From Thermodesulfobacteriota bacterium (GTDB taxonomy: Bacteria > Desulfobacterota_D > UBA1144 > Nemesobacterales > Mycalebacteriaceae), in assembly GCA_965205855.1 (NCBI GenBank), contig OZ242184.1, positions 886,570 through 950,569 on the forward strand: DNA of 64,000 nucleotides, read 5' to 3'. Positions within the stretch are counted from its first letter, which is position 1. Each line of letters starts with the position of its first letter. The position numbers were made by a program, and so were the translations under genes. Positions 2,705 to 53,232 of this stretch are shown here, piece by piece. A model generated the notes under the pieces. It was not told the DNA's origin, did no database searches, and worked only from the letters and a program-made list of their open reading frames with translations.

Positions 2705-3414
2705 CAAACCGCAATATAAAAAGCTGCGAGGCTTTGGTTATAAAAAAAACTCCGCTCGGCGAATCCGATATCGCGGTTGTGTTTTTCACAAAAGAGTTCG
2801 GCAAGCTCAGAGCGACGGCAAAGAATGCGGTTTCGAGCAGAAAAAGATTCGGCGGTCGGCTTGAACTTTTCACCCGTCTGAAAATTGAACTGAGAAAGAC
2901 CCTCGCGGGTACGACAACGCTGGAAAGCGCGGAATTGATAAAGAGTTTTGAAGATGTGGTAAAAGACATGAGAATCTTTCTCAAGGCAAACTGCATTGTT
3001 GAGTTTATAGACGCGGCACTACCGGAAAACGAAGAGCCGTGTGAAATAATGTTCACTGAAGCGCTGAAAGCCTTTTCATCAATGGAAAAAGGAGACGGGA
3101 TTGCGGCGATGATAAAATTCCAAATGGTCTCTCTTGAAACCCTCGGATACGGAGCGGATTTGTCGCGTTGTGGCGAGTGCGAAAGAAATGATTTCGCACG
3201 TGGGTCGCTGGTTTTTTCGACCGGTCTTTTCCTGTGCGACGAGTGCGGACGCAAAGAGGTAGCAAAGCCCGCGAAGAAAATCATGCGCGCAAACGCCCTC
3301 GTAGAAGACGAAGACGCGTTTGAAACCATCAACTGCCTGAACGCTTTCTTTCAATATCAGACGGGAAAAATATTGAAATCCGCGAAAGTTCTGGAGAGTA
3401 TGTTGCTGATATGA
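2701..3414 (+). CDS. recO: DNA repair protein RecO
   Basis: N-terminal OB-fold region. C-terminal zinc finger CGEC...CDECG. Start overlaps the mgtE stop. Confidence 0.85.
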   Translation: MTNRNIKSCEALVIKKTPLGESDIAVVFFTKEFGKLRATAKNAVSSRKRFGGRLELFTRLKIELRKTLAGTTTLESAELIKSFEDVVKDMRIFLKANCIVEFIDAALPENEEPCEIMFTEALKAFSSMEKGDGIAAMIKFQMVSLETLGYGADLSRCGECERNDFARGSLVFSTGLFLCDECGRKEVAKPAKKIMRANALVEDEDAFETINCLNAFFQYQTGKILKSAKVLESMLLI

Positions 3415-4622
3415 GCGCTGCAAAGTTAAAAAAAAATTCTCCCGTTTCGGTTCCAGGGTTTCTGTTCAGTTCGCTTTCGTGCGGAATAAAAAAAGGCGGA
3501 AAGCCCGATCTCGCGCTTATCTATGCGGAGAAACCCGCGGTCACGGCGGCGATATTCACAAAAAACAGACTCAAGGCCGCTCCGGTTCTTCTGGGAATGA
3601 AGCGCGTAAAACAGGGAAAATGCCAAGCGCTTTTGATAAACAGCGGACATGCGAACGCGATAACCGGAAAGGAAGGCGGCAAAGCGGCGGAATTGACCAC
3701 ACGTGCTCTCGCGGGCAAATTAAAAATTCCCCCCGGCCTTGTCATACCTTCGTCAACGGGACTGATTGGCGGAAGGTTTCCTTCCGGAAAAATTGTAAAA
3801 GCGGTTCCGCGCCTGATTTCACAACTTTCCGCAAGCGGAGCAGACAAAACGGCGCGCGCGATAATGACAACCGACCGGTTTTCAAAAATCTCTTCAAGAA
3901 AAATTAAAATCGGCGGACTTGCGGGAACCGTCTGCGCAATTGGAAAAGGCGCGGGGATGATTGCGCCTGACATGGCGACAATGCTTTGTTTTGTTCTGAC
4001 CGACATAAATATTTCAAAAACTTTCTCCGGAAAAATATTGCGAAAAGCCGCCGATGGCTCATTCAACCGCATAATTGTGGACGGCGATATGTCAACAAAC
4101 GATTCGGTGTTTCTTCTTTCAAGCGGAGAGCTGGGAAACAAAACCCTCGCGCCCGAAAGCACGGACAGCAAACGTTTTGACAAAGCCGTTTGCGAGGTGT
4201 GTTTTGACATCGCGCAAATGATAGTCAGGGACGGCGAAGGGGCGACAAAGACCGCGCGTATTGAAGTTGAAGGAGCAAAAAATGACCGTGATGCGGATAA
4301 AGTCGCGAGGGCTGTGGGTGGGTCTGTCCTTGTAAAATGCGCGCTTTTCGGAGAAGACCCTAATTTTGGCAGATTTGCTGCGGCTGCGGGGAGGTCCGGA
4401 GCGAATTTCAATCCCGCAAAAATGGATATTTTTATCGGCGCACTGAGGGTTGTAAGCGGCGGAAAAGAAATGACAAATGCTGAAAAAAAAGCCGCGGAAA
4501 TAATGAAAAAGGATGATTTGATAATAAAAATCCGCCTTTTCGAAGGAAAAGGAAAAGCGTTTACGCTTGTGTCAGACCTATCACTTGACTATGTGAAACT
4601 GAACTCGGAATATAGGAGTTAA
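3411..4622 (+). CDS. argJ: bifunctional glutamate N-acetyltransferase / amino-acid acetyltransferase ArgJ
   Basis: ArgJ family signature, including the autocatalytic cleavage site ..PDMATMLCFVLTD.. Length 403 aa. Confidence 0.9.
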   Translation: MSAAKLKKNSPVSVPGFLFSSLSCGIKKGGKPDLALIYAEKPAVTAAIFTKNRLKAAPVLLGMKRVKQGKCQALLINSGHANAITGKEGGKAAELTTRALAGKLKIPPGLVIPSSTGLIGGRFPSGKIVKAVPRLISQLSASGADKTARAIMTTDRFSKISSRKIKIGGLAGTVCAIGKGAGMIAPDMATMLCFVLTDINISKTFSGKILRKAADGSFNRIIVDGDMSTNDSVFLLSSGELGNKTLAPESTDSKRFDKAVCEVCFDIAQMIVRDGEGATKTARIEVEGAKNDRDADKVARAVGGSVLVKCALFGEDPNFGRFAAAAGRSGANFNPAKMDIFIGALRVVSGGKEMTNAEKKAAEIMKKDDLIIKIRLFEGKGKAFTLVSDLSLDYVKLNSEYRS

Positions 4623-4644
4623 GTGCCGCCTGAAAATCAGGCAA

Positions 4645-5742
4645 TTATTCCGTCCCCACAATTTCCGCAACAGAGTCAACCCCCTCCCTTTCCATAAAAC
4701 GCGCGATGCCCCTGTTGATTTGAGACGCGACACCGGAGCCCTCTCCCCTTATTGCCGTAAATACCTGAACGGCATTCGCTCCGGCTTTGATTTTCTCAAG
4801 AGCGGTTTTCGTATCCTTTACCCCGCCAGAGCCGATAATTGTCATTTTCCCTCCGGTCTGCGAGCGGATGTATCTAATCCGGTTTGTTGAGAGTTTTCTG
4901 TAACCCTCATCATCACCGCTTATTCCGCCGCTTTCGTCCTTCCATCTTGCGCCGTATTTTGATTTTATCCCGGAAGAACTGGTTGTGTTCGTGGCAATAA
5001 TGCCCGATGCGCCAGTTGTTTCAACCGCTTCAATCACCTCGTCTGTTTCAGAATGTGAAATCTCAGGAGATATTTTCACATAAACAGGAATTTTTTTGTC
5101 TTGTGAGGCAATTGTAACGACACTTTGAAGTATTTGATAAAGTGCATCTCTGCGCTGTAAATCCCTTAATCCCGGCGTATTCGGGGAGCTGACATTAACG
5201 GCGAAATATGACGCGAACGGAAGCAGTTTCCGAGCAACCGCCGCATGGTCTTTCGGAGCGTTTTCCGATGGAACTCCTCTGTTGAAACCGATGCTTATTC
5301 CTATGGGAATTGGGAACGGAGCAGTGTTTTGAAGGTTTTGGGCAACCCCCCCTGCGCCCGGGCTGTTAAAACCGAGCCGATTCAGGAACACTCCGGGGGC
5401 CAGAGAGAAAAGGCGCGGTTTCGGATTTCCGGGTTGGGGATGAAGGGTTACCGAACCAATTTCCACGCAAGAAAAACCGAGAGCGTAGATACCGGAAATT
5501 GCCCTTCCCTTTTTGTCCCAACCCGCCCCGACAATAAGCGGGTTTTCAAGGCGCAGACCGTCAATCTCAACCTCAAGCCGCTTATCTTTGAACCTTCTCC
5601 CGCTGTTTGCGGCAAGCTCGGCAAGCAAAAGCGTAATTCGCGTTTTAGCGGCAAAATGCAACCCTTCAACTGCAAGAAAATGAAGGGTTTCGGAATCTAA
5701 TCTGTCAAGAAACGGGCTTACAAAATTTTTATAGATTGACAT
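4645..5742 (-). CDS. pyrD: dihydroorotate dehydrogenase (quinone), class 2
   Basis: Class 2 PyrD with N-terminal membrane-association extension. FMN-binding TIM barrel motifs GFNSPG, GANAVQVFT. Confidence 0.9.
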   Translation of the reverse strand: MSIYKNFVSPFLDRLDSETLHFLAVEGLHFAAKTRITLLLAELAANSGRRFKDKRLEVEIDGLRLENPLIVGAGWDKKGRAISGIYALGFSCVEIGSVTLHPQPGNPKPRLFSLAPGVFLNRLGFNSPGAGGVAQNLQNTAPFPIPIGISIGFNRGVPSENAPKDHAAVARKLLPFASYFAVNVSSPNTPGLRDLQRRDALYQILQSVVTIASQDKKIPVYVKISPEISHSETDEVIEAVETTGASGIIATNTTSSSGIKSKYGARWKDESGGISGDDEGYRKLSTNRIRYIRSQTGGKMTIIGSGGVKDTKTALEKIKAGANAVQVFTAIRGEGSGVASQINRGIARFMEREGVDSVAEIVGTE

Positions 5743-5751
5743 TTCAACCCT

Positions 5752-6837
5752 CTACACATTGAAACGAAAAAGCATAATATCCCCGTCACAAACTTCATAG
5801 CCTTTTCCCTCGGCTCTCATTTTTCCGGCTTCCTTCGCCGCCGATTCGGAACCGGCGACGATGAAATCTTCATATTTTATTGTTTCCGCCCTTATAAAAC
5901 CTTTTTCAAAATCGGAATGAATAACTCCCGCCGCCGCAGGCGCCTTTGTTCCCAGTTTTATAGTCCACGCCTTCACCTCCTTGGGTCCGGCGGTGAAATA
6001 GGTTATAAGTCCCAAGCCTTTGTAAGCCGCTTGCACAAGTTTTTCAAGTCCTGTTCTGTCAATGCCCATTTCATTGAAGAACTCTTCCCTTTCTTCAAGG
6101 TCAAGCCCTGATATTTCTTCTTCTATTTTCGCGCAGATGTTCACTACGGGGCTTGAGGTTTTCTGTGCGTGAAGTTCCACCTGTTTTGAAAATTCGGACT
6201 CCCGCGCCACATCATCAATATTGCACACATACAAAACCGGCTTCGCGGTCAGCAAAAAAAGTTGCTGTTCTTTCTCAATCTCAAGCCAATCACAATGGCC
6301 GCGGACGGAATTGCCGTCTTCAATAAACTCTCTCAGTTTTCTAACATCAGACAGCTGTTTTTTTATGTCTTTGTCGCCGCTTTTGGCTTGCGTAGCAAGT
6401 TTCTGTTCTTTTTTTTCCAGAGTTTCAAGATCTTTCAATATCAGTTCGGTCTCAATTGTCTCAATGTCACGCCCGGGATTCAAAACGCCGTCAACATGCG
6501 TAACATCACCGTCCTCAAAACATCGGACGACATGAACTATTAAATCCATCTCGCGTATATGAGAAAGAAAAGCGTTGCCCTTGCCCTTGCCCTCGGACGC
6601 GCCCTTCACAATTCCCGCGATGTCAACAAACTCGATAAAAGCCGGAACCATTTTTTCGGGTTTCACAAATGACTGTATTTTTTCAAGCCGCTCGTCAGGA
6701 ACCGCAGCAACACCGATGTTCGGCTCTATTGTGCAGAAAGGGAAGTTTGCTGCTTCCGCGTTTCCGTTAGAAAGAGAGTTGAAAAGTGTTGATTTGCCCA
6801 CATTGGGAAGCCCTACCACGCCGCATTTGAGTCCCAT
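5752..6837 (-). CDS. ychF: redox-regulated ribosome-binding ATPase YchF
   Basis: MGLKCGVVGLPNVGKSTLFN P-loop, TGS domain at the C-terminus. The ORF-track start at 6915 is TTG and overlaps tRNA-His. The internal ATG (MGLKCG) at 6837 is the likely start. Confidence 0.9.
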   Translation of the reverse strand: MGLKCGVVGLPNVGKSTLFNSLSNGNAEAANFPFCTIEPNIGVAAVPDERLEKIQSFVKPEKMVPAFIEFVDIAGIVKGASEGKGKGNAFLSHIREMDLIVHVVRCFEDGDVTHVDGVLNPGRDIETIETELILKDLETLEKKEQKLATQAKSGDKDIKKQLSDVRKLREFIEDGNSVRGHCDWLEIEKEQQLFLLTAKPVLYVCNIDDVARESEFSKQVELHAQKTSSPVVNICAKIEEEISGLDLEEREEFFNEMGIDRTGLEKLVQAAYKGLGLITYFTAGPKEVKAWTIKLGTKAPAAAGVIHSDFEKGFIRAETIKYEDFIVAGSESAAKEAGKMRAEGKGYEVCDGDIMLFRFNV

Positions 6838-6870
6838 AATTTTTTCTTTCCTGGTATTTCCCTTTAAAAG

Positions 6871-6949
6871 TGGGGTGAATGACCGGATTTGAACCGGCGA
6901 CCTCCGAGGCCACAACTCGGCGCTCTAACCATGCTGAGCTACATCCACC
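6871..6949 (-). tRNA. tRNA-His (GTG) with encoded G-1 and 3' CCA
   Basis: Manual cloverleaf fold: acceptor GTGGATG/CATTCAC (one G-U), anticodon loop TTGTGGC, T-loop TTCAAAT, extra 5' G pairing with discriminator C. Confidence 0.85.
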
Positions 6950-8152: not shown

Positions 8153-9037
8153 ATGACCCCGATACTCAAATTGAAAACTACGAAAAAATCCGCCGATATA
8201 TGGATAAAACTTGAGAATATAAGCAACTCGGGAAGCTCCAAGGAAAGAATCTGCTCCGCGATAATTTCTGATGCGGAAAACAGAGGGAAACTCCATCCCG
8301 GCAAAACAACCGTGGTTGAGGCGACAAGCGGCAACACGGGCATCGCGCTCTCGCTTGTGTGCGTCGAAAAAGGATACCGCACGACTCTTTTCATGCCCGA
8401 AAACACCGCCGCCGAAAAAAAATCCCTTGCCAGGCTGTTCGGCGCGGAAATTGTTGAAACCCCCTCGGATGAGTCCTTGCGGGGGGCGATAAGAAGAGCC
8501 GGAAAGTTTGCCGCTGAAATGCCGGATGAGCGTTTCTTTGCCAATCAGTTCTCAAACCCGTTGAACCCCGCAACGCACAGGACACAAACCGCGCGTGAAA
8601 TAATCGCTCAGGCAAAACAAAAGGACACCGGTGCAATAGACGCTTTTATAATGGGGGTCGGCACCGGCGGAACAATTACGGGCGTGGGGCTTGAGATTAA
8701 AAATGTATTCCCGAACGCCGAAGTCGTCGCCGTTGAGCCTGAATCTTCGGCGGTTCTCTCCGGCGGAAAGCCCGGGAAACACTCAATTTCTGGCATAGGA
8801 ACGGGTTTTATTCCGGATATTCTGGACACCGGAGCATATAACCGGGTGGTTACCGTAACGGATGGTGAAGCATTGAAGGGAGTCTCCGAACTTGCCCTTA
8901 ACAACGGGATCTTCGCGGGAATTTCATCCGGCGCGAACTATGTCGCCGCATTGAAAATGGCGGAAGAACTGGGTCCGGAAAAACAGGTTTTCACCATCGC
9001 GTGCGATTCGGGAAACCGTTATATTTCAATGAAATAA
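8153..9037 (+). CDS. cysK: cysteine synthase (O-acetylserine sulfhydrylase), PLP-dependent
   Basis: PALP-fold with the PLP-lysine region NSGSSKERI, plus GNTGIALS and the glycine-rich loop GVGTGGTITG. Confidence 0.85.
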   Translation: MTPILKLKTTKKSADIWIKLENISNSGSSKERICSAIISDAENRGKLHPGKTTVVEATSGNTGIALSLVCVEKGYRTTLFMPENTAAEKKSLARLFGAEIVETPSDESLRGAIRRAGKFAAEMPDERFFANQFSNPLNPATHRTQTAREIIAQAKQKDTGAIDAFIMGVGTGGTITGVGLEIKNVFPNAEVVAVEPESSAVLSGGKPGKHSISGIGTGFIPDILDTGAYNRVVTVTDGEALKGVSELALNNGIFAGISSGANYVAALKMAEELGPEKQVFTIACDSGNRYISMK

Positions 9038-39505: not shown

Positions 39506-42115
39506 CTAAATTGACTCAACAACACCGGCGGACATTTCAATCGCTTCGGCAACCCCTTCGGGACGGTCTCCGCCCGCCTGCGCGAGCACGGGCTTTCCGC
39601 CTCCTCTGCCGCCAATCAGCGGGGCAATCTCCTTGATGATTTTCCCCGCGTGAAACCTGTCTGAAATATCCTTTGTAACCCCGACAAGGATAAATGCCTT
39701 TCCCTCGCGCACGCCGCCAAGCACCGCGACCCCGCCTTTAATTTTCGCGCGTATCCCGTCCCACAATTCCCTCAACTCTTCGGGGCCGCAGTCCGGAACT
39801 TCGCGTGAAAGAAACCGCGCTCCGTTAATTTCCTTCATGCCGGATATCATCTCACCGGCGCCTTTCATAAGAGCGCTTTTTCTGCGCACACCAGACTCCT
39901 TTTCGAGCTCCGTGTTACGCTCAAGCAGTTTTCCGATTTTTTCCGCAACCGCTCCCGGAGCAACTCCGAGCATCTTTGCGGCGCGCGCAAGAGTCCTTTC
40001 GTTTTCCAGAGCGCGTTTGTACGCCGCCTCATGGCAAACCGCCTCTATTCTTCTCACTCCCGCGCTTGAAGCGGATTGCGAAACTATGCTGAACATTCCC
40101 GCCTCCGCGGAGTTGGCAATATGAGTTCCGCCGCACAGCTCAACGCTGTATCCGCCGATTGAAACCACCCTGACCCTGTCGCCGTATTTCTCCTCAAAAA
40201 TCGCCATTGCCCCCCCTTTCAGCGCCTCTTCGTAAGAAACATCCGCTCTTGTAACAACCTCGTCCGCGCGTCTTATTTTCTCATTCACCATATCTTCAAT
40301 CCCCTTAATGTCTTCGTGGCTCACGGGCGAGTGGTGTGTGAAGTCAAACCGCAATCTGTCCGGGGCGACAAGCGAGCCCGCCTGTGAAACATGGGTTCCG
40401 AGTTTGTCCCTCAAAACGGAGTGCAGTATGTGAGTCGCGGTGTGGTGCGCGCACGCGGCGCGTCTGCAGCTTTTGTCAACTGAAAGGCGCACGGTGTCTC
40501 CGGGGCGAACCGCGCCTTTTTCAATCACGGCGCGGTGGCGGATAATACCCGCGATGGGGCGGGTTGTGTCAATCACTTTCGCAAAAAACCCGTCCCCCTC
40601 AATGGTTCCCGTGTCTCCCGCCTGTCCTCCGGACTGTGCGTAAAAAGGCGTTGAATCGGTAACAATGTCCGCTGTGATGTCAGAATTTGCGAAAAAAACA
40701 ACCTTGCCCGTCCCTTCGGTGGCTTCGTAGCCGGTAAAAGCCGATGAGAAACCCGCGGAAACAAGTTCCGACAAACCCCCGCCGCCGTCTTCGGTGCCTT
40801 TCCACGACCCTTTTGACTGCTCTTTCTGTTTTGCCATCTCTTTGTCAAAACCTTCCCTGTCAACCCCGATATTTTTTTCCCTGAGCACATCCTCGGTCAA
40901 TTCAAGCGGAAAACCGTACGTGTCGTAAAGTTTGAAAGCCACATCGCCGGAAAGTTTTTCACCGCTTGAAAGTTTTTTCACTTCGCTCTCAAGAATCTCA
41001 AGCCCTCTGTCTGCGGTTTCAAGAAAACCCTCCTCTTCTTTCATCACGATTTGAGCCGCAAACTCGGTTTTTTCCACAAGTTCGGGATAGGTTCCGGCAA
41101 GTGTGCCGGAGACCGCGCCGAGGATTTTGAAAAGAAACGGCTCATTTGTGCCGAGGGTTTTCGCATGGCGCGCGGCTCTTCTGATAATTCTTCTAAGAAC
41201 ATAGCCCCTACCTTCGTTTGAGGGAAAAATCCCGTCCGCGATAAGAAACACAGCGGCGCGCGCATGGTCTGCGATAACGCGCATGCCGCTGTCAATCCTG
41301 CCTCCCTTTCCATCTGTGTATTTTATTTGCGAAAGTTCTTCAATCCGCCCGATTACGGGGCGAATCAGGTCGGTTTCGTAGTTTCCGGGCGCTCCCTGTA
41401 TGACCGCCGTTATCCTTTCAAGTCCCATCCCCGTGTCTATGTTCGGAAGAGGAAGGGGTTTTGTCTCGCCGGATTCATTCTGTTCATACTGCATAAAAAC
41501 AAGGTTCCACAACTCAAGGTAGCGGTCGCAGTCGCAGCCCGGCGCGCACTCCGGTTTACCGCATCCGGTTTTTTCGCCCTGGTCTATGAGAATTTCCGAA
41601 CACGGCCCGCACGGCCCCACATCTCCCATAGTCCAGAAGTTGCTTTCGTCTCCCATGCGCAGAATGTGGGATTGCTCAAGCCCCGCTTCTTTGCGCCAGA
41701 TTTCAAACGCTTCGTCATCGTCCTTGTAGACGGTAACCCAGAGTTTATTTTTGGGAAGTCGGAAAACATTTGTCATCAAATCCCATGCGAAATGCACGGC
41801 GTCCTGTTTGAAATAGTCGCCGAATGAAAAATTGCCGAGCATTTCAAAAAATGTGTGATGCCGTGCCGTGTATCCGACATTGTCCAGATCGTTATGTTTT
41901 CCGCCCGCTCTCAAGCATTTCTGCGACGAGACCGCGCGTTTGCTGGCGGGAGGCTGTTCGAGTCCGAGAAAGATGTTTTTGAACGGAACCATCCCCGAAT
42001 TGGTAAAAAGAAGAGTCGGGTCTTGCACGGGGATAACGGGTGCGCTTCTTACACGCTTGTGGCCGTTTTTTTCAAAGTAAGAAAGAAAAGTTTCCCTTAT
42101 TTCGTTTCCGGTCAT
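39506..42115 (-). CDS. alaS: alanine--tRNA ligase
   Basis: 869 aa. Class II core, HxxxH/CxxxH editing domain, C-terminal DHHA1. Confidence 0.92.
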   Translation of the reverse strand: MTGNEIRETFLSYFEKNGHKRVRSAPVIPVQDPTLLFTNSGMVPFKNIFLGLEQPPASKRAVSSQKCLRAGGKHNDLDNVGYTARHHTFFEMLGNFSFGDYFKQDAVHFAWDLMTNVFRLPKNKLWVTVYKDDDEAFEIWRKEAGLEQSHILRMGDESNFWTMGDVGPCGPCSEILIDQGEKTGCGKPECAPGCDCDRYLELWNLVFMQYEQNESGETKPLPLPNIDTGMGLERITAVIQGAPGNYETDLIRPVIGRIEELSQIKYTDGKGGRIDSGMRVIADHARAAVFLIADGIFPSNEGRGYVLRRIIRRAARHAKTLGTNEPFLFKILGAVSGTLAGTYPELVEKTEFAAQIVMKEEEGFLETADRGLEILESEVKKLSSGEKLSGDVAFKLYDTYGFPLELTEDVLREKNIGVDREGFDKEMAKQKEQSKGSWKGTEDGGGGLSELVSAGFSSAFTGYEATEGTGKVVFFANSDITADIVTDSTPFYAQSGGQAGDTGTIEGDGFFAKVIDTTRPIAGIIRHRAVIEKGAVRPGDTVRLSVDKSCRRAACAHHTATHILHSVLRDKLGTHVSQAGSLVAPDRLRFDFTHHSPVSHEDIKGIEDMVNEKIRRADEVVTRADVSYEEALKGGAMAIFEEKYGDRVRVVSIGGYSVELCGGTHIANSAEAGMFSIVSQSASSAGVRRIEAVCHEAAYKRALENERTLARAAKMLGVAPGAVAEKIGKLLERNTELEKESGVRRKSALMKGAGEMISGMKEINGARFLSREVPDCGPEELRELWDGIRAKIKGGVAVLGGVREGKAFILVGVTKDISDRFHAGKIIKEIAPLIGGRGGGKPVLAQAGGDRPEGVAEAIEMSAGVVESI

Positions 42116-42179
42116 TTAATTGCCGTCCGTGGCGCGACAGAGTGAAGTGGGAAAAGACGCACGCGGGGAATTGAGAAAA

Positions 42180-42434
42180 TCACTCTGCGGGAGAAACGAC
42201 CGAGACGGTGTTTCTTTTTCCTTTGCGGAATTTCACAACTCCGTCTGCAAGAGCAAAAAGCGTCCAGTCCCGTCCGGTTCCGACATTGTCTCCGGCGTGA
42301 AAAGAAGACCCTCTCTGGCGGATGATGATGTTTCCCGCTTTGACGACTTCTCCGCCGAATTTTTTAACGCCGAGCCGTTTGCCCGCCGAATCTCTTCCGT
42401 TTCTTGAACTGCCGCCGCCTTTTTTTGTGGACAT
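42180..42434 (-). CDS. rpmA: 50S ribosomal protein L27
   Basis: [25 protein letters not shown]-terminus. Confidence 0.9.
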
Positions 42435-42446
42435 TCTCTGTCTCTC

Positions 42447-42764
42447 CTACCCTTTTATACCGGTTATGCGAACCGATGTGTATCTCTGCCGGTGTCCGGC
42501 TTTAAGTCTGTATTTTTTGCGTCTTTTGAATTTAAAAACGGTAATTTTAGGTCCTTTCTTCTGAGAGACGATTTCGCCTTTAACTTCCGCTCCGTCAACA
42601 ACGGGAGTACCCACGCGCGCCTCACCCTCTCCGTCCGAAACCATAAGCACATCGGGAAATCCGATCGTGTCTCCGGGGCTACCCTCGATTTTTTCTATGT
42701 CAAGAACATCTCCGGATTTGACCAAGTACTGTCTGTTTCCTGTTCTTATTACTGCCTGCTGCAT
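42447..42764 (-). CDS. rplU: 50S ribosomal protein L21
   Basis: MQQAVIRTGNRQYLV N-terminus and C-terminal KKYRLKAGHRQ. Confidence 0.9.
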   Translation of the reverse strand: MQQAVIRTGNRQYLVKSGDVLDIEKIEGSPGDTIGFPDVLMVSDGEGEARVGTPVVDGAEVKGEIVSQKKGPKITVFKFKRRKKYRLKAGHRQRYTSVRITGIKG

Positions 42765-42788
42765 AAAGATTGCTCCGCTCTTGGAAGG

Positions 42789-43547
42789 TCAATTATGCCA
42801 CAAAAAGGGATGGAGTGTCAAACTATACGGCGACCGCCTGATAGTCGGGGAGTTCACCCATTGTTTTCCCTCAAGAGCGCGTCCCGTCTTCTTTTTGTTC
42901 ACACCGCCCCATTGTTTGAAGAAAAACGGAACCCCGCTTTCAACGCAGTTGTCCCTGATTTCCGTAACCCATTCCTCTTTCATCGGTCTTGCGCCGGGGC
43001 CGGACTCTCCACCGACAATGACCCAGTCTATGCCTGACAAATTGAGGTTTGGAAACGGGGCAAGCAACGGTTCAAGAGAAAGAAACTTCACGCAAGCATC
43101 GGTCTGTTTTAAAACTTCTGTACGGGAAAGATATTTCTCGGACTCTACGCTTGTTCCCATCCAGATGTTGGAAGTCCAGTGCAGGTGTTTGTTCGCCTTC
43201 ACAACCCTTTCCGGTCTTTTTGTGAGAACCTGAAAAGTGTGTTGAGATGCTTCGTTCATAACTTCAAAAACGGACATAATGAATTTTGCGGGAACATCCT
43301 TGTGGAACAAATCGCTCATTGAATTGACAAAAACTATTTTCGGTTTTTTCCATTTAAGCGGGTCTTTCAAAGTGTGTTCATGAGTGGTGAGTTTGAAACC
43401 GTTTCTGTATTTCTCCATCCCTTGAGCGTGAAGCCGCTTTGCCATCCGCTCGGCGTAGCAGTATTTGCAACCGTGGCTGATTTTTGAACAACCGGTAATG
43501 GGGTTCCATGTTGTGTGAGTCCATCCTATTTTGGAGGGTTGGGTCAT
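42789..43547 (-). CDS. phage Gp37/Gp68 family (DUF5131) three-Cys-motif protein
   Basis: N-terminal [26 protein letters not shown] matches the family's GWxxxTWNPxxGC..C..CY signature (C-x6-C-x2-C). The ATG overlaps the res stop (TAATG). Confidence 0.75.
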
Positions 43548-46090
43548 TACTGTTTGTTGATAACACCGTTTATATCGTCCCGCCAGCTGTCTTCAAACAT
43601 CATCCTGAAAGTAGCGGGCGTCTTATTGATGGCCATTTCGCCTCTGTCAAGGGCGATCCTGTATGTTTTTTCAAGCGTGTCGAGCAATTTTTTCTTGTAA
43701 CTCGTATCTTCGCTGCCTTTCAGGTGGATGCCCTTTGTTTCCAGAATTAGCAGTTTTCCGTTATCTTTTCGGCAGGCCACAAAATCGGGATACACGCGCT
43801 GGCGTCGCCAGCCTTGCAGATAGTACGCTTGTCTTGCAGCTATTCTGTGCCACCAGTAGATGGCGTTGCTCTTATCCAGATAAAGCGCAAAATCCCGCTC
43901 CAGACCGTTAAAACTACTTTCATAAACAGGTTCAAAAAGGTTTTGCTGTATAGGTCTGCCATGTTCGCTCTGTAATGATCTTTCTTGACTGGAAACAAAA
44001 ACCTCGAACGACTTGCTCAATTCGTAGTCCAGTCGCTGGTCGGTCTCAAGGTGAAACCGAATCACATTCCGCCCAACCTTTTCCCGAAACACCGCTTCGG
44101 CCTCGTCGTCTATGGCCTTGTTCACGCGGCGGCTCAATTCTTCGGAAAGGTAAATTCGGTTATTCAACAATTTGCTTTCATCGTGTTTCCTGTTTTTATG
44201 TGTTTGAATAAACCCCTCCGCCATGCGCGCCGCCTGCCACGGATTGGGCACCTTGTCCACAAGCCGCCGAACAAAATAATCCACGCTCAGCCGCTTTTCG
44301 CTGTCAGGGATTTGTTCCGAAGCCTTAACCTGCCCTTGAATGTCCACCGTGGTTTTGATCTCCTGAGTGATGTCTCTATCATCCAGATTCACCGCTGCGC
44401 CCGCGTCAATGGTGTCCCAATCAATCGCGCTTAATATATCGCGGTCGTAATCAATGGGGCGCCAGGTGCGCCCCGCTTTGTGTAACACCTGCGGGAGAAA
44501 AATTTTCAATGGCCGGTATTTACCACGACGTTTGACGGTGGTCGGTTTCGGTGCATCGCCCTCGCCATGCCCGTGAACAAAATCGCCAAGCCCGGTCAGC
44601 CCTTCATTCTCCAGGCCGGCCTTCACGCCTTTGATCGCCTTGCCTACGACCTGATTATAGCAATAGATATAACACTGGTTCAGCGCATCGCCTTGTGCGA
44701 TTCTGCGTGCATGGGGTTGCCGCATCACCCGACCGACCATTTGCGTGATGGCGGTGGTTGCGGTGGTGTTATCCAGCAAGGCAAGCAGATATGCAAACGA
44801 GCAATCCCAGCCTTCTTTCAGCGCGTCTTTGGTGATAATCCAGCGCACCTCGCTTGTCTCGCTCAACAAATCCTCACCCGCAAGTTCCTTGCGTTCCGAT
44901 GATTGAATCCTGATGTGATTCTCCGGCACAGCAAGATTTTGTATCAGGTATTCGCGCGCATCCTCCGAATGAATTTTTCCTTGCCCTCTTTGTTTTGCGC
45001 CCGTTCTTTCCACCCTGACCAAAGCGATGGGTCGGATATGGCGGTTTTCCTGTTCCTGTAATTTTTGCGCCGCACTTTCAAGCTCATCCAGTTTTTCCTG
45101 TGTTTTGGCAAGCGTGTGTTCCCAGTCGGAATTGCTGAAACTGTGAATCTCTATCGGCAGTTTGATCATCTCCTCGTCCTGGAGGTCGCGGCCCGATGTG
45201 TTGACCAGGATATTGCTGATGCCGATTTTCGGCGTGGCGGACAGTTCAAGCACAAAACGGGGGTTGAGCCGGTTGACGGATTTGACAAACTCCTGGTTGT
45301 TTTGATTATTCGGTCCATATGCTTTATGCGCTTCGTCCAAAATCACCGTGGGACGAATCAGTTTCAGCACATTGATCAGGCTTTGCTTAACCCAGTCGCC
45401 GGGTGCATTTTTCTCCAGGTCGGGATGGTGTTCCGAAAGCGTTGCATTGGCCGCCGCGTCATCCTGCTCGGGAAAAAACGACATATACCCGCTGCTGTCG
45501 CGGAATATTTTGAGAAACTCCCTGTTCTTTTGCCGGTTGGCGGAGGGTAGCATCAGCAGCATAATGCAAAGATAGTTTTCGGTATCCTGTCGGGTAAAGC
45601 GGTCGGTTTTTTGCAACAATTTGACCCTGCCGCCAGACATATGTTCGAGCATCTGCCGGTAGGTATGTTCGCGGGTGTGGAACGCCTGGCGGGTCTGCTC
45701 GTAGATCGCCCGGGTCGGCACAATCCACAACACAAAGCCGGTATCCCGCTTGATCCGCTCAAGCGTGGCCACGCCCAACAGCGTCTTGCCGCCGCCGGTC
45801 GGCACCTTCAGGCAAACATGCGGGATGGGTTCGCCGGATGCCGCAGTGCGGGAAATGTAGCCGGGAACTGCCATGTCACCGTCTTGGGAAATGCCGGGGA
45901 GGATATTTTGATCTTTCAGCGCCTTCCAAGCTAAGAGGGGATAGTTTTGCAGTTCTTCAGGAATATCAATCCCCGACTCTTCAAGAGCTTTGCCCGCCTT
46001 TTCACTAGTCAGCCGCGCTTCCTTGAGCGCGTCCAGCCAGCGGTCTAACTGTTCAAGAGCTTGTTGCTGATAGTTTTTCAGGGAGAGCAT
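43547..46090 (-). CDS. res: Type III restriction enzyme Res subunit (SF2 helicase plus C-terminal PD-(D/E)xK nuclease)
   Basis: Walker [13 protein letters not shown] box [11 protein letters not shown] (LSATP), motif [12 protein letters not shown]-terminal VYPDF...LILETKG nuclease core. Start set at the internal ATG ([10 protein letters not shown], 46090) abutting the upstream ORF. The ORF track extends to 46225. Confidence 0.8.
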
Positions 46091-46091
46091 A

Positions 46092-46649
46092 TCACGGATT
46101 TTTTGAGTCAGTACTGTCTGAATTATTTGGCAAATTGATGATTTCAACAGGCACATTCCTTTTACCAACTGCAAGACCGACAGCGTAGTTACGGATAATA
46201 GTTTGATCCATTTCCATATCCGCATAGCCTTGTGGATAGTACGAACCCCTTAGAATTTCCATCTGTTCTACCTTAAAATCTAGCACCTTGGCCATTGAGC
46301 TAAGCATCTCCGTGAGCAATTCCATTTGCTCCTTGCCGAGTCGTTCATAGTGCGAACGAGAATCATTTTCTTCGTTAGGCCTCTTAGCATGCGTTTCACC
46401 ATAATGCTTGCGGAGTGCTGCCCATTTTTCTATAACTTCTTTATGCTTAACAAATTCTATCTCAACCAGATTAATGGCTCCGACATAATCAGGTGATAAA
46501 CGCGCATTTCGTGTACGCATTAACGTCTTGAATATATCCATTTTTCGCGCCTTTTGTTCGCGCCATCTGTCAAGAAGACCGTTAACCCAGACAGCTGCGC
46601 AAGGACCGATTAAGATGGCTGCAATGGTGATGATAGAATATGAATTCAT
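46092..46649 (-). CDS. hypothetical membrane-anchored protein (single N-terminal TM), embedded between mod and res
   Basis: ATG start, N-terminal hydrophobic helix IITIAAILIGPCAAVWV, then a charged helical region. 2-nt gap to the mod stop and 1-nt gap to the res start. Visibly AT-richer than its neighbours. Confidence 0.55.
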   Translation of the reverse strand: MNSYSIITIAAILIGPCAAVWVNGLLDRWREQKARKMDIFKTLMRTRNARLSPDYVGAINLVEIEFVKHKEVIEKWAALRKHYGETHAKRPNEENDSRSHYERLGKEQMELLTEMLSSMAKVLDFKVEQMEILRGSYYPQGYADMEMDQTIIRNYAVGLAVGKRNVPVEIINLPNNSDSTDSKNP

Positions 46650-46651
46650 GT

Positions 46652-48291
46652 TTATCTTATACCCTCATATGGTAATTGGGCAAAAGTTATCCCCATCTCG
46701 GTTAATGCTTTTTGTCCCATGAATTTGTGAGTGGCGAACACCACCGCGGTTTTCTTTTTTGCCTTGGCCTGTTTGGCGATGCGTTCGGCGCGGGTGCTGT
46801 TCAAAGCGGAATCCGCACTGCGCAGAAAATCAAGGTTCGGCTCGTAGATCAGGTAAAACATTTTGTCACCTGCTTCATAAAATAAACCGTCTTTGCCACG
46901 CCTTGTTTTCGGGTTGAGTTTATGCGGCGATTGTCCGCTTGCGGTATAGATCAGATGGCGGGCAAAGGTTTCATAGCCCGGCAGGTTCCTGCCGGTGAGC
47001 ATTTTTTCAATGCTGATTTCATCGCCCAGTGTGCAATAGGCAAAACTGCCGCCCAGTCCGTTTTTTAGGTTCTCATCCTTTGCTTTTGGTATGCCCTTTA
47101 TCACACGGCGAACGCGCTCGGCGGTGATTTTGTCGGCGTAGTCTTCGCATTCCACCAAGATAAATTTGCGGTTGCCGCCGTCTTCCTTGTTCAGCGCAAG
47201 CACGGCGTGGGCAGTGGTGCCGGAACCGGCGAAGGAGTCGAGGATAATGGCGTTTTTTGTCGTTGCCAGTTGTAAAATCTTTTTCACAAGGGAAATTGGT
47301 TTGGGGTTTTGGAACTGATTAGAACCAAACACCGTCCTCAACTCGATTGTGCCGTTGGTTGTTGTACCTACATCATCCCACCAAGTGCTAGGCGTTAACC
47401 CCCTTCGGCGTGCCTCTGACAAAAAACGTTTGCGCTGAGGTCTGGAACTATTTCTCTTTCCGAATACGATTCTATTGTCTGCAAGAAGCTCCTCAAATTT
47501 GTTCAAATCGTTTTTCCAGCAATTACCTTCAGTGGGGTAAAATATTTCTTTTGTTTTAGGGTTTCTTATCGGATACATCTGATTAGGTCGAACCCCACCA
47601 GCCTCAAATGGATCCGCCTTCCATGGGCCTCTCGGATCATTATCAGGATTTTTGAATCCTTCTAAAATGGCAGGAAGTTTGAAATCTTTTCTAATGGTTT
47701 TTAATACATTCAGTTGTTTAGCATAAGCTATATTATGAGTGTGTGATATTGATACTAATGCAGGATTTGTAATTGATTTTGTGCTATGCCACACAAAATC
47801 TGCAACAAAATTCTCCTCCCCAAAAATCTCATCCATGACCATCCGCAGGCGGTGCTGTTCATTGTCGTCGATGGAAATAAAAATTACGCCATCTTCGGCC
47901 AGCAATTCTCTTAACAACTGCAATCTTGGCCACATCATGCACAGCCATTTGTCGTGCCGCTCCAGGTCTTCGCCATCCACCGGACTTTTGCCTTTCAGCC
48001 ACGCCTTCATCATCGGGCTGTTGACATTGTCGTTATAGACCCATTTCTCATTGCCGGTGTTGTAGGGCGGGTCGATGTAAATGCAGTTGACGCGGCTGGC
48101 ATAGCGCGGCAGCAACGCCTTGAGCGCGTGCAGATTGTCGCCGTGGATAATCAGATTGTCATCAAGGGAAGGGTTACCCCCCCATTTTTCGCTGAAAGAG
48201 ATTTTTTAGTGTCTATCTCAAGTGTCCTGGACGGAACAGTCAGGTGGTGCGCATAAATGAGTTGCTTCCCTTTGAAATCAATTGTCGGCAT
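46652..48291 (-). pseudogene. mod: Type III R-M Mod subunit (beta-class N6-adenine/N4-cytosine DNA methyltransferase), frameshifted at a G7 homopolymer (phase-OFF or sequencing slip)
   Basis: The in-frame body 46652..48115 carries DPPY (motif IV, CIYIDPPYN) and FAGSGTT (motif I). Upstream in the same frame there is NLIIHGDNLHALKALL but no start, and a stop codon follows. An ATG at 48291 opens frame +1 (MPTIDFKGKQLIYAHH..) and ends 47 codons later. The two frames join if the G7 tract at 48177..48183 is 8 G. Confidence 0.75.
48177..48183 (-). repeat. poly-G7 (C7 on the plus strand) simple sequence repeat inside the mod 5' region
   Basis: gggttaccccccca on the plus strand. Homopolymer tracts at the 5' end of Type III mod genes are the classic phase-variation switch. 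Confidence 0.8.
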
Positions 48292-48448: not shown

Positions 48449-48830
48449 CCCGCGGTGACATGGAGAACCGGATCAAGGATCAGCAGTTGGATTTGTTTGC
48501 GGATCGCACCTCTTGTCACCGCTGGTGGCCCAACCAGTGCCGGCAGTTGCTGTCAGGGTTGGCTTACACGTTGATTGAGGGATTGCGGCGCCTTGCACTA
48601 CAGGGCACCGAACTGGCCAAAGCCAGTCCTCACAGGATCAGGCTGACACTGCTTAAAATCGGTGCCGTGATCATCCGCAACACGCGCCGCATCCGCCTAC
48701 TGATGAGCAGTGCTTATCCCCATCAGGCGTTGTTCCGCACGGCAGCCTATCGGCTCAACTCCCCATAAACCCAACCCAGTGCTGCCCCGGCATGTTGATA
48801 AACAATGGGGGTAGGGGGAGTTGCGCCCGA
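48449..48830 (+). mobile_element. IS1380-family-like insertion sequence remnant (3' end only). The right boundary is approximate
   Basis: Begins abruptly at the repeat A junction and encodes only the C-terminal 100 aa of a DDE transposase. Downstream GGGGTAGGGGGAGTTGCGC could be a terminal inverted repeat. Confidence 0.5.
48460..48768 (+). pseudogene. transposase C-terminal fragment (IS1380/IS4-like)
   Basis: ENRIKDQQLDLFADRTSCHRWWPNQCRQLLSGLAYTL resembles the conserved C-terminal block of IS1380-family transposases (ENRIKE..L..ADRLSCH..ANQ.RL). The N-terminal roughly 350 aa are absent. Confidence 0.6.
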
Positions 48831-48959: not shown

Positions 48960-50099
48960 TTATTTTCGGATGAGAAACAGAAATTCTTTATTCGGATCGC
49001 TGGATTCCCGCAACCACTCATTTGTCCATTTCATGGCGGCCATCACATTTTTTTTATACTCAATTTTTGCGCTATCCACAATTTCTCCGTTACGCGTTAT
49101 CACCTCGTTTAATTCCTCCGCGGTTGCTCGTCCACCGGAACTGTAAGAGAGCAAGATCCATCGGCAAGGAGTTTCCTTCAGCAAACGCTCTATGGCTTCC
49201 ACCACAACCAATCGTCCTGATTTGCTTCTACGAAATTCCTCGAACACTGAAGTCGCCACTTTATCGGATGTGTCTTTTCTGCGGAGGGACTTGCCAAATA
49301 GCACGGGATGATCATTTTTACATATGGTCGTCCACAAATGATAATATGAAGCGTACCGAACCCTTGAAGGTGGCATTTTTTCATTGTTTGACCCATACGG
49401 AGGATCAAAATAAGCAAGATCGGCGTCCGCTTCGGGAAGTACCTTAAAAACATCACCACACAGCACCGTGTTTTCGATTTCATTTTTCCACAACCGTGGC
49501 ACTTTCAATTGTAAATTTTTGAATGAACGCGGCGACCAATCTTTTAAATAAGAAACAAAATGACCAAGAGTACTGTCTATCTCATTCAACCCTAAAATCA
49601 GGCTTGTCAATGCCACACTTTTGGAAACGTCATCCAGCATCAAGGCATCGATCTCTCTCCTGATTGCATCAAGTTTTCTTGTATTTTTTTTCTGCCAAGG
49701 CTTTTTGGTTCCATCCTTCTGAATAGCATTATGGCAAGTTCCAGAGCGAACATCACCACCGTAATTCTCAGTAAACCATCCGTCTTCCGGAGGAAGCGAA
49801 TTTAAATGATCAATAAGAGGTTGGTATATTTTCGGGTTTTTTAAGTTTTTCAAATAGCACGTGGCAAAAATTCTTGACCATTCGGAAATATCATTTGATA
49901 CCACGCGATATCCTGCTTGTGCAAAAGATTGACTTACTCTGGTGGAGCCTGAAAAACCGTCAAAAATGCTTTTTGCTCCGGTCTGTTTTGACAGATTAAA
50001 AATATGTGGAAGCAGTTTCAGTTTTGAGCCTGCGTAATTGATGCCTTCGGTTTTTGGAACATCAATCCAATCACGAAAAATTTGAACTTGCCCTTGCAT
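48960..50099 (-). CDS. Dam-family (D12 class, alpha-type) N6-adenine DNA methyltransferase
   Basis: NYAGSKLKLLP (compare Dam WAGGK), FDGFSGS (motif I) and YFDPPYG (motif IV) in the alpha-class order. Has a C-terminal extension of about 100 aa. AT-rich. Confidence 0.8.
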   Translation of the reverse strand: MQGQVQIFRDWIDVPKTEGINYAGSKLKLLPHIFNLSKQTGAKSIFDGFSGSTRVSQSFAQAGYRVVSNDISEWSRIFATCYLKNLKNPKIYQPLIDHLNSLPPEDGWFTENYGGDVRSGTCHNAIQKDGTKKPWQKKNTRKLDAIRREIDALMLDDVSKSVALTSLILGLNEIDSTLGHFVSYLKDWSPRSFKNLQLKVPRLWKNEIENTVLCGDVFKVLPEADADLAYFDPPYGSNNEKMPPSRVRYASYYHLWTTICKNDHPVLFGKSLRRKDTSDKVATSVFEEFRRSKSGRLVVVEAIERLLKETPCRWILLSYSSGGRATAEELNEVITRNGEIVDSAKIEYKKNVMAAMKWTNEWLRESSDPNKEFLFLIRK

Positions 50100-50776
50100 T
50101 ATGTAACTTTAAAGCGGGAAGCCTGCTTGAGTCTAACAATATCATCTTTCACTTTTGCAAGAGCCTCATTCTGGCCGAAATCAGAAGAAACAAGCGCGTG
50201 AGAAAATAGTTGGACCAAGATAGGATTGTGAGAATAATCAACCCATCCATTGGTTATGCTATCAAAATAGTTTAAACCACTTTTTGTATGAGTCCAAAGC
50301 CCTCGCTGGAGGGCATTGGCGGTTGCGCTTCCATAACGCACCTCGCAAATATAAGAATCGCTTGCATCGTAGAAACGATATACTGGGTGCTTTCTACCTT
50401 TCTTTTTTGTTTCTTTTACTATTTTCACCGTTTCAGTTTCAGCGCGGTGGTAATCGAAGACAAGAATATTACACTGTCGATTTTTTTCGTCATAAATTAA
50501 TGGCAAAACATTTACATTGTAAAAATCCGAGAAAGCGGGGTCGGCAAGCACTCGTTGTACATTTTTCTTGCCCACTATTTCATCCCCCTCTTGTGCCAAT
50601 CTCGGAAACATTTTGAAATTCTTGTCGGTTGAAAGTTGAAGGGGACCATCACCATACGCTTTGATGCTAACAGGAAATTCAGCTTCGGTTACTTCATTTA
50701 TTATTTTGATGTCTTCTTCCCGAGATTTGGCTCTGTATAAATCTTTGCCAACATGGATCGAGCGAAAATCATACAT
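50099..50776 (-). CDS. hypothetical protein. Putative Type II restriction endonuclease partner of the Dam-like methyltransferase (by context only)
   Basis: Co-oriented with the methyltransferase gene, start-stop overlapping it. AT-rich. No motif I can name from sequence. Confidence 0.4.
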   Translation of the reverse strand: MYDFRSIHVGKDLYRAKSREEDIKIINEVTEAEFPVSIKAYGDGPLQLSTDKNFKMFPRLAQEGDEIVGKKNVQRVLADPAFSDFYNVNVLPLIYDEKNRQCNILVFDYHRAETETVKIVKETKKKGRKHPVYRFYDASDSYICEVRYGSATANALQRGLWTHTKSGLNYFDSITNGWVDYSHNPILVQLFSHALVSSDFGQNEALAKVKDDIVRLKQASRFKVT

Positions 50777-52050: not shown

Positions 52051-52256
52051 TCAGTTTGATATTGGCTTTGAAAATACCCGATTTACTCCCCCAACCTAAA
52101 ACCCTCAACCTCCCGATGCACCGCCCCTTCTCGTCTCAATTCACTCTCCATCAAACAAACCCTGTCAGAAACAAACTCAAGTTTAAACTGCGGCAATTCG
52201 GGCAGTTTTATCCTTTTTCTTATCCGCCCTATCGTAATGTGTGGTATAAAATCCCG
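52051..52256 (+). repeat. native copy (C) of the repeated thpR 3' terminus plus downstream flank
   Basis: About 85-90 percent identical to the B fragment over about 200 bp. Homology ends at cagtttgatattggc, 32 bp past the stop. Confidence 0.7.
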
Positions 52257-52643
52257 TTTCTCCGGCTCAAAACCGATTGTCTCAAGTTTTGAGTCAATCT
52301 CGTCCTTGAGACTGAAAAACGCGTCCCCGGATTCCGCAATCACCGCAAGCGTCTGCGTATAACGGCGGAGTATAAGCGCCTCAACCCCGTCCGTTGTGAT
52401 GTCGAGCGGCACAAACCGCTTGCAACAACTTTCAATAACCCCGCACAGTTCGGGAATCAATTCGCGGCGCGTCTCTCCGAGAAACCTTAAAGTAATATGG
52501 AATTTTTCAGACAGCTCCCAACGCACATGGCGGAGCGAGCGTATTGCGGCGGAACGGGATTTTATCACCCTTTTTGCTTTTTCGGGAACTTCAAGAGAAA
52601 TAAAAAGCCGGACGGTAGCGCTGTCAACTCTCAAGCTCAACAT
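52083..52643 (-). CDS. thpR: RNA 2',3'-cyclic phosphodiesterase (2H phosphoesterase, LigT/ThpR)
   Basis: Two H-x-T/S-x motifs (HITLRFLGE and HITIGR) in the 2H fold. Start chosen at MLSLRV (52643). The ORF track begins at 52664. Confidence 0.85.
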   Translation of the reverse strand: MLSLRVDSATVRLFISLEVPEKAKRVIKSRSAAIRSLRHVRWELSEKFHITLRFLGETRRELIPELCGVIESCCKRFVPLDITTDGVEALILRRYTQTLAVIAESGDAFFSLKDEIDSKLETIGFEPEKRDFIPHITIGRIRKRIKLPELPQFKLEFVSDRVCLMESELRREGAVHREVEGFRLGE

Positions 52644-53232
52644 TCCAGTATGAGGCATCAACAAAACTTACAAACGGCTCCCATTCTTTGTAGCGGATTG
52701 GGTGCGCGTAAATGTTTGCAAACGGTCCCCACTGCGGTTCGGAGGGAATTGTGAGCAATTTCATCCTTGCCTGTTCGGGAGTTCTACCGCCTTTTCTGCG
52801 GTTGCACGAGCCGCAGGAGCAGACAACATTGTCCCATCTGCTTTCTCCGCCGTGCGCGCGCGGAATAACATGGTCTATCGTAAGCTCGGTTTTGGAAAAA
52901 TGCTTTCCGCAGTATTGGCATTTACCGCTGTCTCTGCGGAATATGTTGAAGCGCGTAAATCTCGGACGCTTTCTGTGAAATCCGCTGTAACGGAGCAGGA
53001 TTATAACCCTCGGCGCTTTGATGATCCTTGTAACGGTTCTCACATAGTCGCCACGCCCTCCGGCGGCAGAGGCGGCGGAAACCTCCGCCCAACTCTCAAA
53101 ATCAAAAGTCTCGTAGGTTTTTGTTACGGCTTTCGCCTCGCCGCAATAGAGCATCACAAATGCCCGTCGCAAATTGGTAACGGAAACGGGCATATAGTTT
53201 TTGTTCAAAACCAGAACCGGCGAACTCAACAT
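52624..53232 (-). CDS. HNH endonuclease (COG1403-type with N-terminal VLVLNxxYxP domain)
   Basis: HNH core CQYCGKH...TIDHVIPRAHGG...N...CSCGSCNRRKG. Its 3' end overlaps the thpR start. Confidence 0.8.
   Translation of the reverse strand: MLSSPVLVLNKNYMPVSVTNLRRAFVMLYCGEAKAVTKTYETFDFESWAEVSAASAAGGRGDYVRTVTRIIKAPRVIILLRYSGFHRKRPRFTRFNIFRRDSGKCQYCGKHFSKTELTIDHVIPRAHGGESRWDNVVCSCGSCNRRKGGRTPEQARMKLLTIPSEPQWGPFANIYAHPIRYKEWEPFVSFVDASYWNVELES

Follow-up and report, generated by a model that had tools for sequence, protein, structure and literature searches.

A likely mosaic of a mobile mod-DUF6680-res restriction cassette and a resident DUF5131 gene upstream of rplU

We analyzed a stretch of 64,000 nucleotides from a Thermodesulfobacteriota bacterium (contig OZ242184.1 of assembly GCA_965205855.1, positions 886,570 to 950,569; hereafter the window), in which four co-directional genes follow each other on the minus strand directly upstream of rplU. 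They encode the methyltransferase (Mod) and the nuclease (Res) of a restriction-modification (R-M) system of Type III, a 185-residue DUF6680 protein embedded between the two, and a DUF5131 protein that follows Res (Table 1). A first-pass annotation of this DNA had proposed that the tightly coupled run acts as a single composite system for defence or DNA modification. The gene order and the junctions that it described proved exact: the DUF6680 gene starts 2 nt past the mod stop codon, res starts 1 nt past the TGA of the DUF6680 gene, and the res TAA and the DUF5131 ATG have one A in common (cagTAATGacc). From the end of the DUF5131 open reading frame (ORF) to the rplU start codon there are 24 nt.

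Table 1. Features of the four-gene run and its surroundings, in window coordinates.
Feature	Coordinates	Strand	Remarks
mod	46652..48291	-	ATG at 48291, TAA at 46654..46652
Poly-G tract (G7), frameshift site in the 5' end of mod	48177..48183	-	length differs among relatives
Central region of mod, presumed target-recognition domain	47257..47807	-	no alignment to locus L001; GC 0.41
DUF6680 gene (185 aa, 558 bp)	46092..46649	-	embedded between mod and res; PF20385
res (847 aa, intact)	43547..46090	-	ATG at 46090
DUF5131 gene (Gp37/Gp68, putative radical-SAM superfamily)	42789..43547	-	PF07505; resident of the rplU locus, probably outside the cassette
1-nt deletion in the DUF5131 gene	42856..42857	-	frame shifted for the last residues; native-frame stop TAG at 42825..42823
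Native rplU promoter (predicted), TTGACA-N18-CATAAT with TG	42792..42821	-	inside the extended DUF5131 tail
rplU	42447..42764	-	ATG at 42764; rpmA and alaS come next; forms the conserved side of the island
Insertion sequence (IS) transposase remnant, N-terminally truncated	48460..48768	+	PF13701, 8e-34, profile positions 332-431 of 435
Second R-M system, Type II: D12-class adenine methyltransferase and endonuclease	48960..50776	-	PF02086; PADLOC MTase_II 7e-162, REase_II 1e-99
Genes for LigT-like 2'-5' RNA ligase/phosphoesterase and HNH endonuclease	52083-53232	-	far edge of the island

The family assignments of the four products are clear. Mod matches PF01555 (5e-32) and PADLOC MTase_III (9e-146), and its translation carries the DPPY motif (IDPPYNTG) ahead of FAGSG (FAGSGTT, an FxGxG motif). 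Res belongs to PF04851, matches PADLOC REase_III over residues 3-841 (6e-213) and contains the motifs PTGGGKT, DEAH and a C-terminal PD...ETK (YPDF...ILETKG); its start at 46090 agrees with the N-termini of its relatives. The match to the EcoP15I-type equivalog of NCBIfam is weak, which argues that this Res belongs to a different clade. Homologues of res at 72-79% identity number in thousands, and the plasmid and phage collections held no close relatives of it, distant ones only. The 185-residue protein matches PF20385 (DUF6680) over residues 1-177 and profile positions 1-168 of 170 (E = 5.9e-47). The DUF5131 protein matches PF07505 (4e-98) as well as PADLOC PDC-M41B (2e-117) and PDC-M30B. The three cysteines attributed to it in the first-pass annotation are borne out, C20, C27 and C30 being invariant in 20 homologues. 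Their spacing is CX6CX2C, as compared to the canonical CX3CX2C of radical S-adenosylmethionine (SAM) enzymes; DUF5131 figures among the radical-SAM subgroups of RadicalSAM.org (PMC9477430), and the best NCBIfam radical-SAM model scored 85.6 bits against the window protein, with a cutoff of 355.

The case for a single functional unit had been built on the degree of coupling. Among neighbouring genes of the window that share a direction, however, 22 of 39 pairs lie no more than 4 nt apart (a count from crude longest-ORF gene calls, in which overlaps may be overcounted). Such spacing being common here, coupling alone is no evidence of a functional unit, and the argument loses most of its force. 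Shine-Dalgarno sequences are clear ahead of rplU and rpmA; the DUF6680 gene has at most a weak match, and res and the DUF5131 gene have none.

More informative is the recurrence of the first three genes elsewhere. The two DUF6680 proteins closest to that of the window (81% and 66% identity) are both encoded between Type III mod and res genes, in two complete metagenome-assembled chromosomes and both without DUF5131. A profile built from 20 sequences, run against a single genome of each species, yielded 80 DUF6680 loci (compared loci are given here by L numbers). The order mod-DUF6680-res was present in three other genomes from two phyla, namely Candidatus Spongiihabitans (L001, Gammaproteobacteria) and two Nitrospirales (L002 and L014), and a decayed copy was found in a Poriferihabitaceae genome (L010). 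The genomes with the cassette are probable sponge symbionts. In Candidatus Spongiihabitans, the cassette has the same order and equally tight junctions as in the window. Its DNA is 92% identical to window positions 47257..43582 (3.7 kb) and 87% identical to positions 48279..47807, and no homology between the window and L001 could be aligned beyond the cassette ends. Judged from these comparisons, mod-DUF6680-res appears to behave as a recurrent and recently horizontally mobile unit. As for the co-occurrence of DUF6680 with Type III genes that the first-pass annotation had proposed to test, DUF6680 is not confined to such systems, and no Type III genes lie near 76 of the 80 genomic DUF6680 loci. 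The Res proteins of the window and L001 share 91% identity, with a ratio of nonsynonymous to synonymous substitution rates (dN/dS) of 0.21. We also considered whether the C-terminus of res might be chimeric with a gene that once lay upstream and rejected the idea, as L100 and L101 have similar tails. This native-looking tail places the cassette end essentially at the res stop codon.

The DUF5131 gene has a different history. In 19 related Type III loci (L001, L002, L014, L087-L097 and L099-L103), res is never followed by it, and a DUF5131 gene within 10 kb is likewise missing from all 80 DUF6680 loci. The first-pass annotation had reasoned that a gene found only sporadically next to Type III systems would be a passenger. 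This is what we see for DUF5131, which is a neighbour of the Type III genes and not a component. Its closest homologue (84% identical) is encoded in a syntenic relative, L005. Window positions 43547..42836 align to the L005 DUF5131 gene with 81% DNA identity at the syntenic position, positions 42823..41650 align to the L005 rplU region with 75% DNA identity, and the two rplU proteins (Pfam Ribosomal_L21p) are 79% identical; the names rpmA and alaS for the genes that follow come from reading translations, not from a family search. Upstream of DUF5131, L005 carries a different R-M system, an HNH-methyltransferase set on the opposite strand. The presence of DUF5131 upstream of rplU without the cassette in L005 suggests that DUF5131 is older than the cassette at this locus. 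Together, these alignments reveal the mosaic origin of the four-gene run. L005 further holds an AAA_21-RloB pair (4843-6874) between DUF5131 and rplU, flanked by GTTTGACA direct repeats. The site upstream of rplU thus presents itself as a turnover hotspot, as far as the compared loci tell.

Several observations bear on the state of the DUF5131 gene itself. Its dN/dS against L005 is 0.07, a sign of strong purifying selection and hence of a working gene. TcmP (TIGR04474), the described partner of DUF5131, is encoded directly upstream of DUF5131 in L004 and L006; in the window, the gene in this place is res, and tblastn detected neither TcmP nor a remnant of it at E < 0.1 in the 64 kb or in L005 (best window E = 0.2). 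DUF5131 seems to have resided at the rplU locus before the cassette arrived and to have lost its usual neighbour TcmP. Close to its 3' end, the gene has suffered a 1-nt deletion: the site reads TGGG-TGAAC in the window as compared to TGGGATGAAC in L005, and the same position reads TGGGAGGAT and TGGGATGAG in L004 and L006, respectively. As a consequence, the last residues are read in another frame and the ORF runs on across the rplU promoter; all invariant residues up to W230 are spared. The predicted promoter matches 11 of 12 positions, is the best such site in 7 kb and is homologous to the upstream region of rplU in L005. A deletion that removed the 3' end of DUF5131 was also considered and rejected, since the 1-nt deletion is the cause and the native stop codon abuts the -35 box of rplU.

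Within the cassette, mod carries a simple repeat whose length sets its reading frame. As assembled, the gene is out of frame and consists of a 5' fragment (48291..48151) and a main frame (listed ORF 48115..46652), and a tract of G8 or G5 in place of the G7 would restore a 546-residue Mod. A poly-G tract occupies the same mod codon position in L099 (G9, about position 1470) and L001 (G24, 8414-8437). The gene is out of frame in all three, each allele being one step off the in-frame state. More distant mod relatives have no poly-G tract and read AAAGGCAAG or similar at this place. Runs of at least seven G or C occur only four times in the 64 kb. Phase variation of Type III mod genes by simple repeats has been described (PMC1976455, PMC12707154), and the tract probably represents a switch that makes Mod phase-variable. 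A further difference to L001 concerns the central region of mod, which could not be aligned while its flanks are 87% and 92% identical; it thus looks like a swapped target-recognition region, which would imply a different specificity.

We inspected six close res relatives (L099-L103 plus L001, 74-93% identity), and all six have an insert between mod and res. In L099 (res 93% identical), the cargo at 3078-5190 comprises a 94-residue ORF ending in ...FRNDIEHH, followed by an IS and a 168-residue ORF; the 94-residue ORF carries an Rx4H motif, HEPN-like by motif alone and with no profile match. L100 (79%) has a decayed and fragmented Lipase_3 pseudogene (4956-6001), L101 (77%) has HicB, a 168-residue ORF and a DUF1828 gene that matches PDC-M24B, L102 (75%) has Lipase_3 together with a mod gene broken around an IS200-like (Y1_Tnp) gene (2387-4817), and L103 (74%) has HicB and an 81-residue ORF. 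Ten metagenomic res relatives of 30-49% identity have no such insert, their mod genes abutting or overlapping res. In the sampled loci, the mod-res junction in the res clade of the window is therefore a variable slot for accessory genes, of which DUF6680 is one cargo. Another Type III-like system, at L004 8-7041, has genes for an M78 peptidase and DUF4411 nested between those for its methyltransferase and ResIII. The peptidase matches PADLOC RmrA (RosmerTA antitoxin type), and a frameshifted TcmP gene and a DUF5131 gene adjoin the system.

The DUF6680 copies in such slots form a single clade in the family tree, and their relationships depart from those of the host cassettes. Between L002 and L014, the Res proteins are 86% identical and the DUF6680 proteins only 49%. 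Conversely, the window and L002 share 41% identity in Res and 65% in DUF6680, with a synonymous divergence (dS) of 2.7 for res and 0.74 for DUF6680. Based on these comparisons, DUF6680 appears to have joined such cassettes once and to have been exchanged later among divergent cassettes, at the same junction throughout. The cassette copies are under purifying selection, with dN/dS ranging from 0.29 over the longer distance to 0.62 in the closest pair. For the protein itself, the AlphaFold2 (AF2) model (predicted local distance difference test, pLDDT, of 93) has a long N-terminal helix and then a helical bundle, and residues 4-22 have a mean Kyte-Doolittle hydropathy of 2.04. The earlier call of a membrane-anchored protein is upheld, and the model supports a predicted architecture of a single-pass membrane anchor and a soluble helical bundle. 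A HEPN assignment, suggested by the R...H in the conserved MRTRR..SPEH, was considered and dropped, since the His varies within the family and the window protein has a Tyr in its place.

DUF6680 comprises 2,828 cluster representatives. The family is mostly alphaproteobacterial and chromosomal, with very few copies in plasmids (2 of 72,556 records) or viral contigs (2 loci). It has no PADLOC or NCBIfam match, and our literature search returned no paper on it. At 34 of the 80 loci (within L021-L083), the gene is translationally coupled to one for a conserved protein of about 112 residues (MDGFYAMYFTG...GPVNVIFKK; for instance L037 9651-9986), which has no match in Pfam, NCBIfam or PADLOC. The order cysS, DUF6680, leuA-like (HMGL) and SQS_PSY occurs in nine loci (L044, L050, L052, L058, L059, L066, L067, L069 and L080), all from Rhodobacteraceae genera where named, and about 10 loci have DUF6680 directly after a class II ribonucleotide reductase gene (nrdJ).

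As a whole, the variable site upstream of rplU presents itself as a defence island of about 10 kb, which ends before lgt (53469). On the upstream side, the Type III cassette is abutted by the DDE_Tnp_1_4 remnant, of which just the C-terminal 100 residues are left and whose truncated side faces the cassette. The two genes of the Type II system beyond it have overlapping stop and start codons and a GC content of about 0.39-0.41.

We favour the reading, to which we give a probability of roughly 60%, that the four coupled genes are a mosaic of a mobile, probably phase-variable mod-DUF6680-res cassette and an unrelated resident DUF5131 gene. On landing, the cassette would have brought its res stop codon onto the start codon of DUF5131, and DUF5131 would now probably be translated via coupling to res, without functional partnership. 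Because the Shine-Dalgarno match of DUF6680 is weak and res and DUF5131 have none, the poly-G switch in mod would also lower the translation of all downstream genes, and the assembled state would be OFF. By analogy with the genes embedded in Type I R-M, BREX, DISARM and Hma systems, DUF6680 is most likely a membrane-acting accessory defence or abortive-infection factor, which would act independently of the restriction enzyme or guard it and is unlikely to be an enzyme subunit. A more far-reaching version, which we put forward tentatively and consider unlikely as a whole, is that, across a very large clade of Type III systems, the mod-res junction serves as a dedicated exchange slot for accessory immune effectors, with DUF6680 as a new membrane-acting abortive-infection or R-M-guardian effector and with its translation and that of res gated by the poly-G of mod.

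A number of observations weigh against this account. DUF6680 shows no homology that ties it to defence, PADLOC gave no match, and the helical bundle of its model says little about function, having no informative structural neighbour. The 76 copies away from Type III genes reside among unrelated housekeeping genes or with the 112-residue partner, so that a selfish or housekeeping small gene fits as well as a defence gene. The dN/dS of 0.62 in the two closest cassettes suggests weak constraint, and the L010 copy is decayed. The sample behind the cargo slot is small, with six close relatives and the window, and the poly-G lengths come from consensus assemblies, in which homopolymer error is possible. 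As to DUF5131, TcmP could lie elsewhere in the genome, and the exact TAATG junction with res could reflect selection for co-expression.

Which readings compete with the mosaic depends on whether DUF5131 or DUF6680 is considered. If mod, DUF6680, res and DUF5131 were one composite defence or DNA-modification system, with DUF5131 and the membrane protein working together with the Type III enzyme, the arrangement of the window would be as expected: the four genes are co-directional with junctions of at most 2 nt and no terminator between them, and the lack of a strong Shine-Dalgarno sequence for DUF6680, res and DUF5131 makes co-translation probable. DUF5131 is moreover a PADLOC defence candidate, whose three closest homologues all adjoin R-M systems in defence islands. 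The adjacency of res and DUF5131, however, is confined to the window genome among the 19 Type III and 80 DUF6680 loci, L005 has the gene at the rplU locus without a cassette, its usual partner is TcmP, and tight spacing is ordinary in the window. We consider the four-gene system very improbable and largely refuted by the comparative data; what stands of the proposal is that mod-DUF6680-res recurs as a unit, and what does not stand is the membership of DUF5131. The frameshifts in mod and DUF5131 could alternatively mark the locus as a dead, decaying R-M remnant. The mod gene is out of frame in the window, L001 and L099, an IS remnant lies next door, and L010, L100 and L102 are related cassettes in decay. 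Yet res (847 residues) is intact, as is DUF6680, both have dN/dS values below 1, the mod frameshift falls exactly in the length-polymorphic poly-G with three alleles one step from ON, and the DUF5131 frameshift spares the invariant residues up to W230, which renders wholesale decay quite unlikely.

Two further explanations concern DUF6680. As a selfish or neutral hitchhiker, it would insert at gene junctions and be expressed by translational coupling, with no role in restriction or defence. Its habit outside the cassette of directly following cysS and nrdJ with overlapping stop and start codons agrees with this, as do the 91 different Pfam families among 122 ORFs flanking DUF6680, a phylogeny incongruent with that of res, the dN/dS of 0.62 in the closest pair and the decay in L010. 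We take this explanation seriously but still judge it rather unlikely, given that no mobility gene accompanies DUF6680, that the family is rare on plasmids and viral contigs, that the fold is predicted confidently with invariant residues across 111 sequences, that dN/dS falls to 0.29 over the longer distance, and that the other genes in the slot are of types common in toxin-antitoxin and defence modules. DUF6680 might instead be a dedicated subunit or regulator of the Type III enzyme, which tethers Mod-Res at the inner membrane, the site of foreign DNA entry, or delays Res expression after transfer of the cassette to a new host. Its fixed position between mod and res in five cassettes with the tight junctions kept, the single clade of the embedded copies, and the anchor followed by a soluble bundle would all suit such a function. 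Close res relatives (74-93%), however, have unrelated cargo in place of DUF6680, distant ones have no insert at all, which argues that the enzyme needs no DUF6680, and most DUF6680 genes have no R-M neighbour; a subunit role hence appears improbable. In sum, the mosaic of a mobile cassette and a resident DUF5131 gene remains the reading that we prefer. Should the slot pattern hold across the clade, Type III R-M would become, like Type I, BREX, DISARM and Hma, a system in which unknown defence genes can be found by embedding, and DUF6680 and the unannotated slot ORFs would be concrete defence candidates. If the immune-effector reading were true, it would provide a first function for DUF6680, a family of about 2,800 clusters. 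Phase-variable restriction is known best from pathogens, and the poly-G alleles suggest that it may also occur in symbiont communities. For scans made from sequence alone, the locus is a caution, as overlapping stop and start codons in compact genomes are no proof of joint function.

Compared to known systems, the cassette resembles classical Type III R-M (EcoP15I/EcoP1I) in having the DPPY motif of Mod before FxGxG, a Res with a superfamily 2 (SF2) helicase and a C-terminal PD-(D/E)xK motif, and mod placed ahead of res within a shared operon. It differs by the unrelated 185-residue gene between mod and res and by the interruption of mod through a poly-G frameshift. With the phase-variable mod genes (phasevarions) of Haemophilus, Neisseria and Helicobacter it shares a repeat in the 5' part of mod, which sets the frame and varies in length among relatives. 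Those genes are from host-adapted pathogens, whereas the present ones are from probable sponge symbionts known from consensus assemblies. Many phasevarions have lost res, whereas that of the window is intact. The DUF5131 protein, full-length, conserved and with its three cysteines, corresponds to its counterpart in the TcmP-DUF5131 pair (TIGR04474 and PF07505; PDC-M30, PDC-M41), but it is preceded by res, with no TcmP in the 64-kb window. Our literature search found nothing on genes between mod and res, and the closest parallels come from other systems. PrrC is embedded in the Type Ic system EcoprrI and guards the enzyme (PMC12707154), and TgvAB is embedded in a Type I R-M system of V. cholerae (PMC11411939). 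Type III was not part of a systematic guilt-by-embedding survey, which treated Hma, BREX, DISARM and Type I R-M (Payne et al. 2024, bioRxiv 10.1101/2024.01.29.577857), and neither DUF6680 nor DUF5131 appears in its text and 11 supplementary files. As with PrrC, TgvAB and the rlo genes, an unrelated gene is recurrently nested between R-M subunit genes (in the window, L001, L002, L014 and the decayed L010), and the slot holds alternative cargo (L099-L103) that includes families frequent in toxin-antitoxin and abortive-infection modules. In contrast to these cases, the host system is of Type III, and the defence role of DUF6680 is suggested only by analogy. The locus can accordingly be viewed as a variant of this known theme, which would extend the embedding of genes in defence systems to a Type III cassette.

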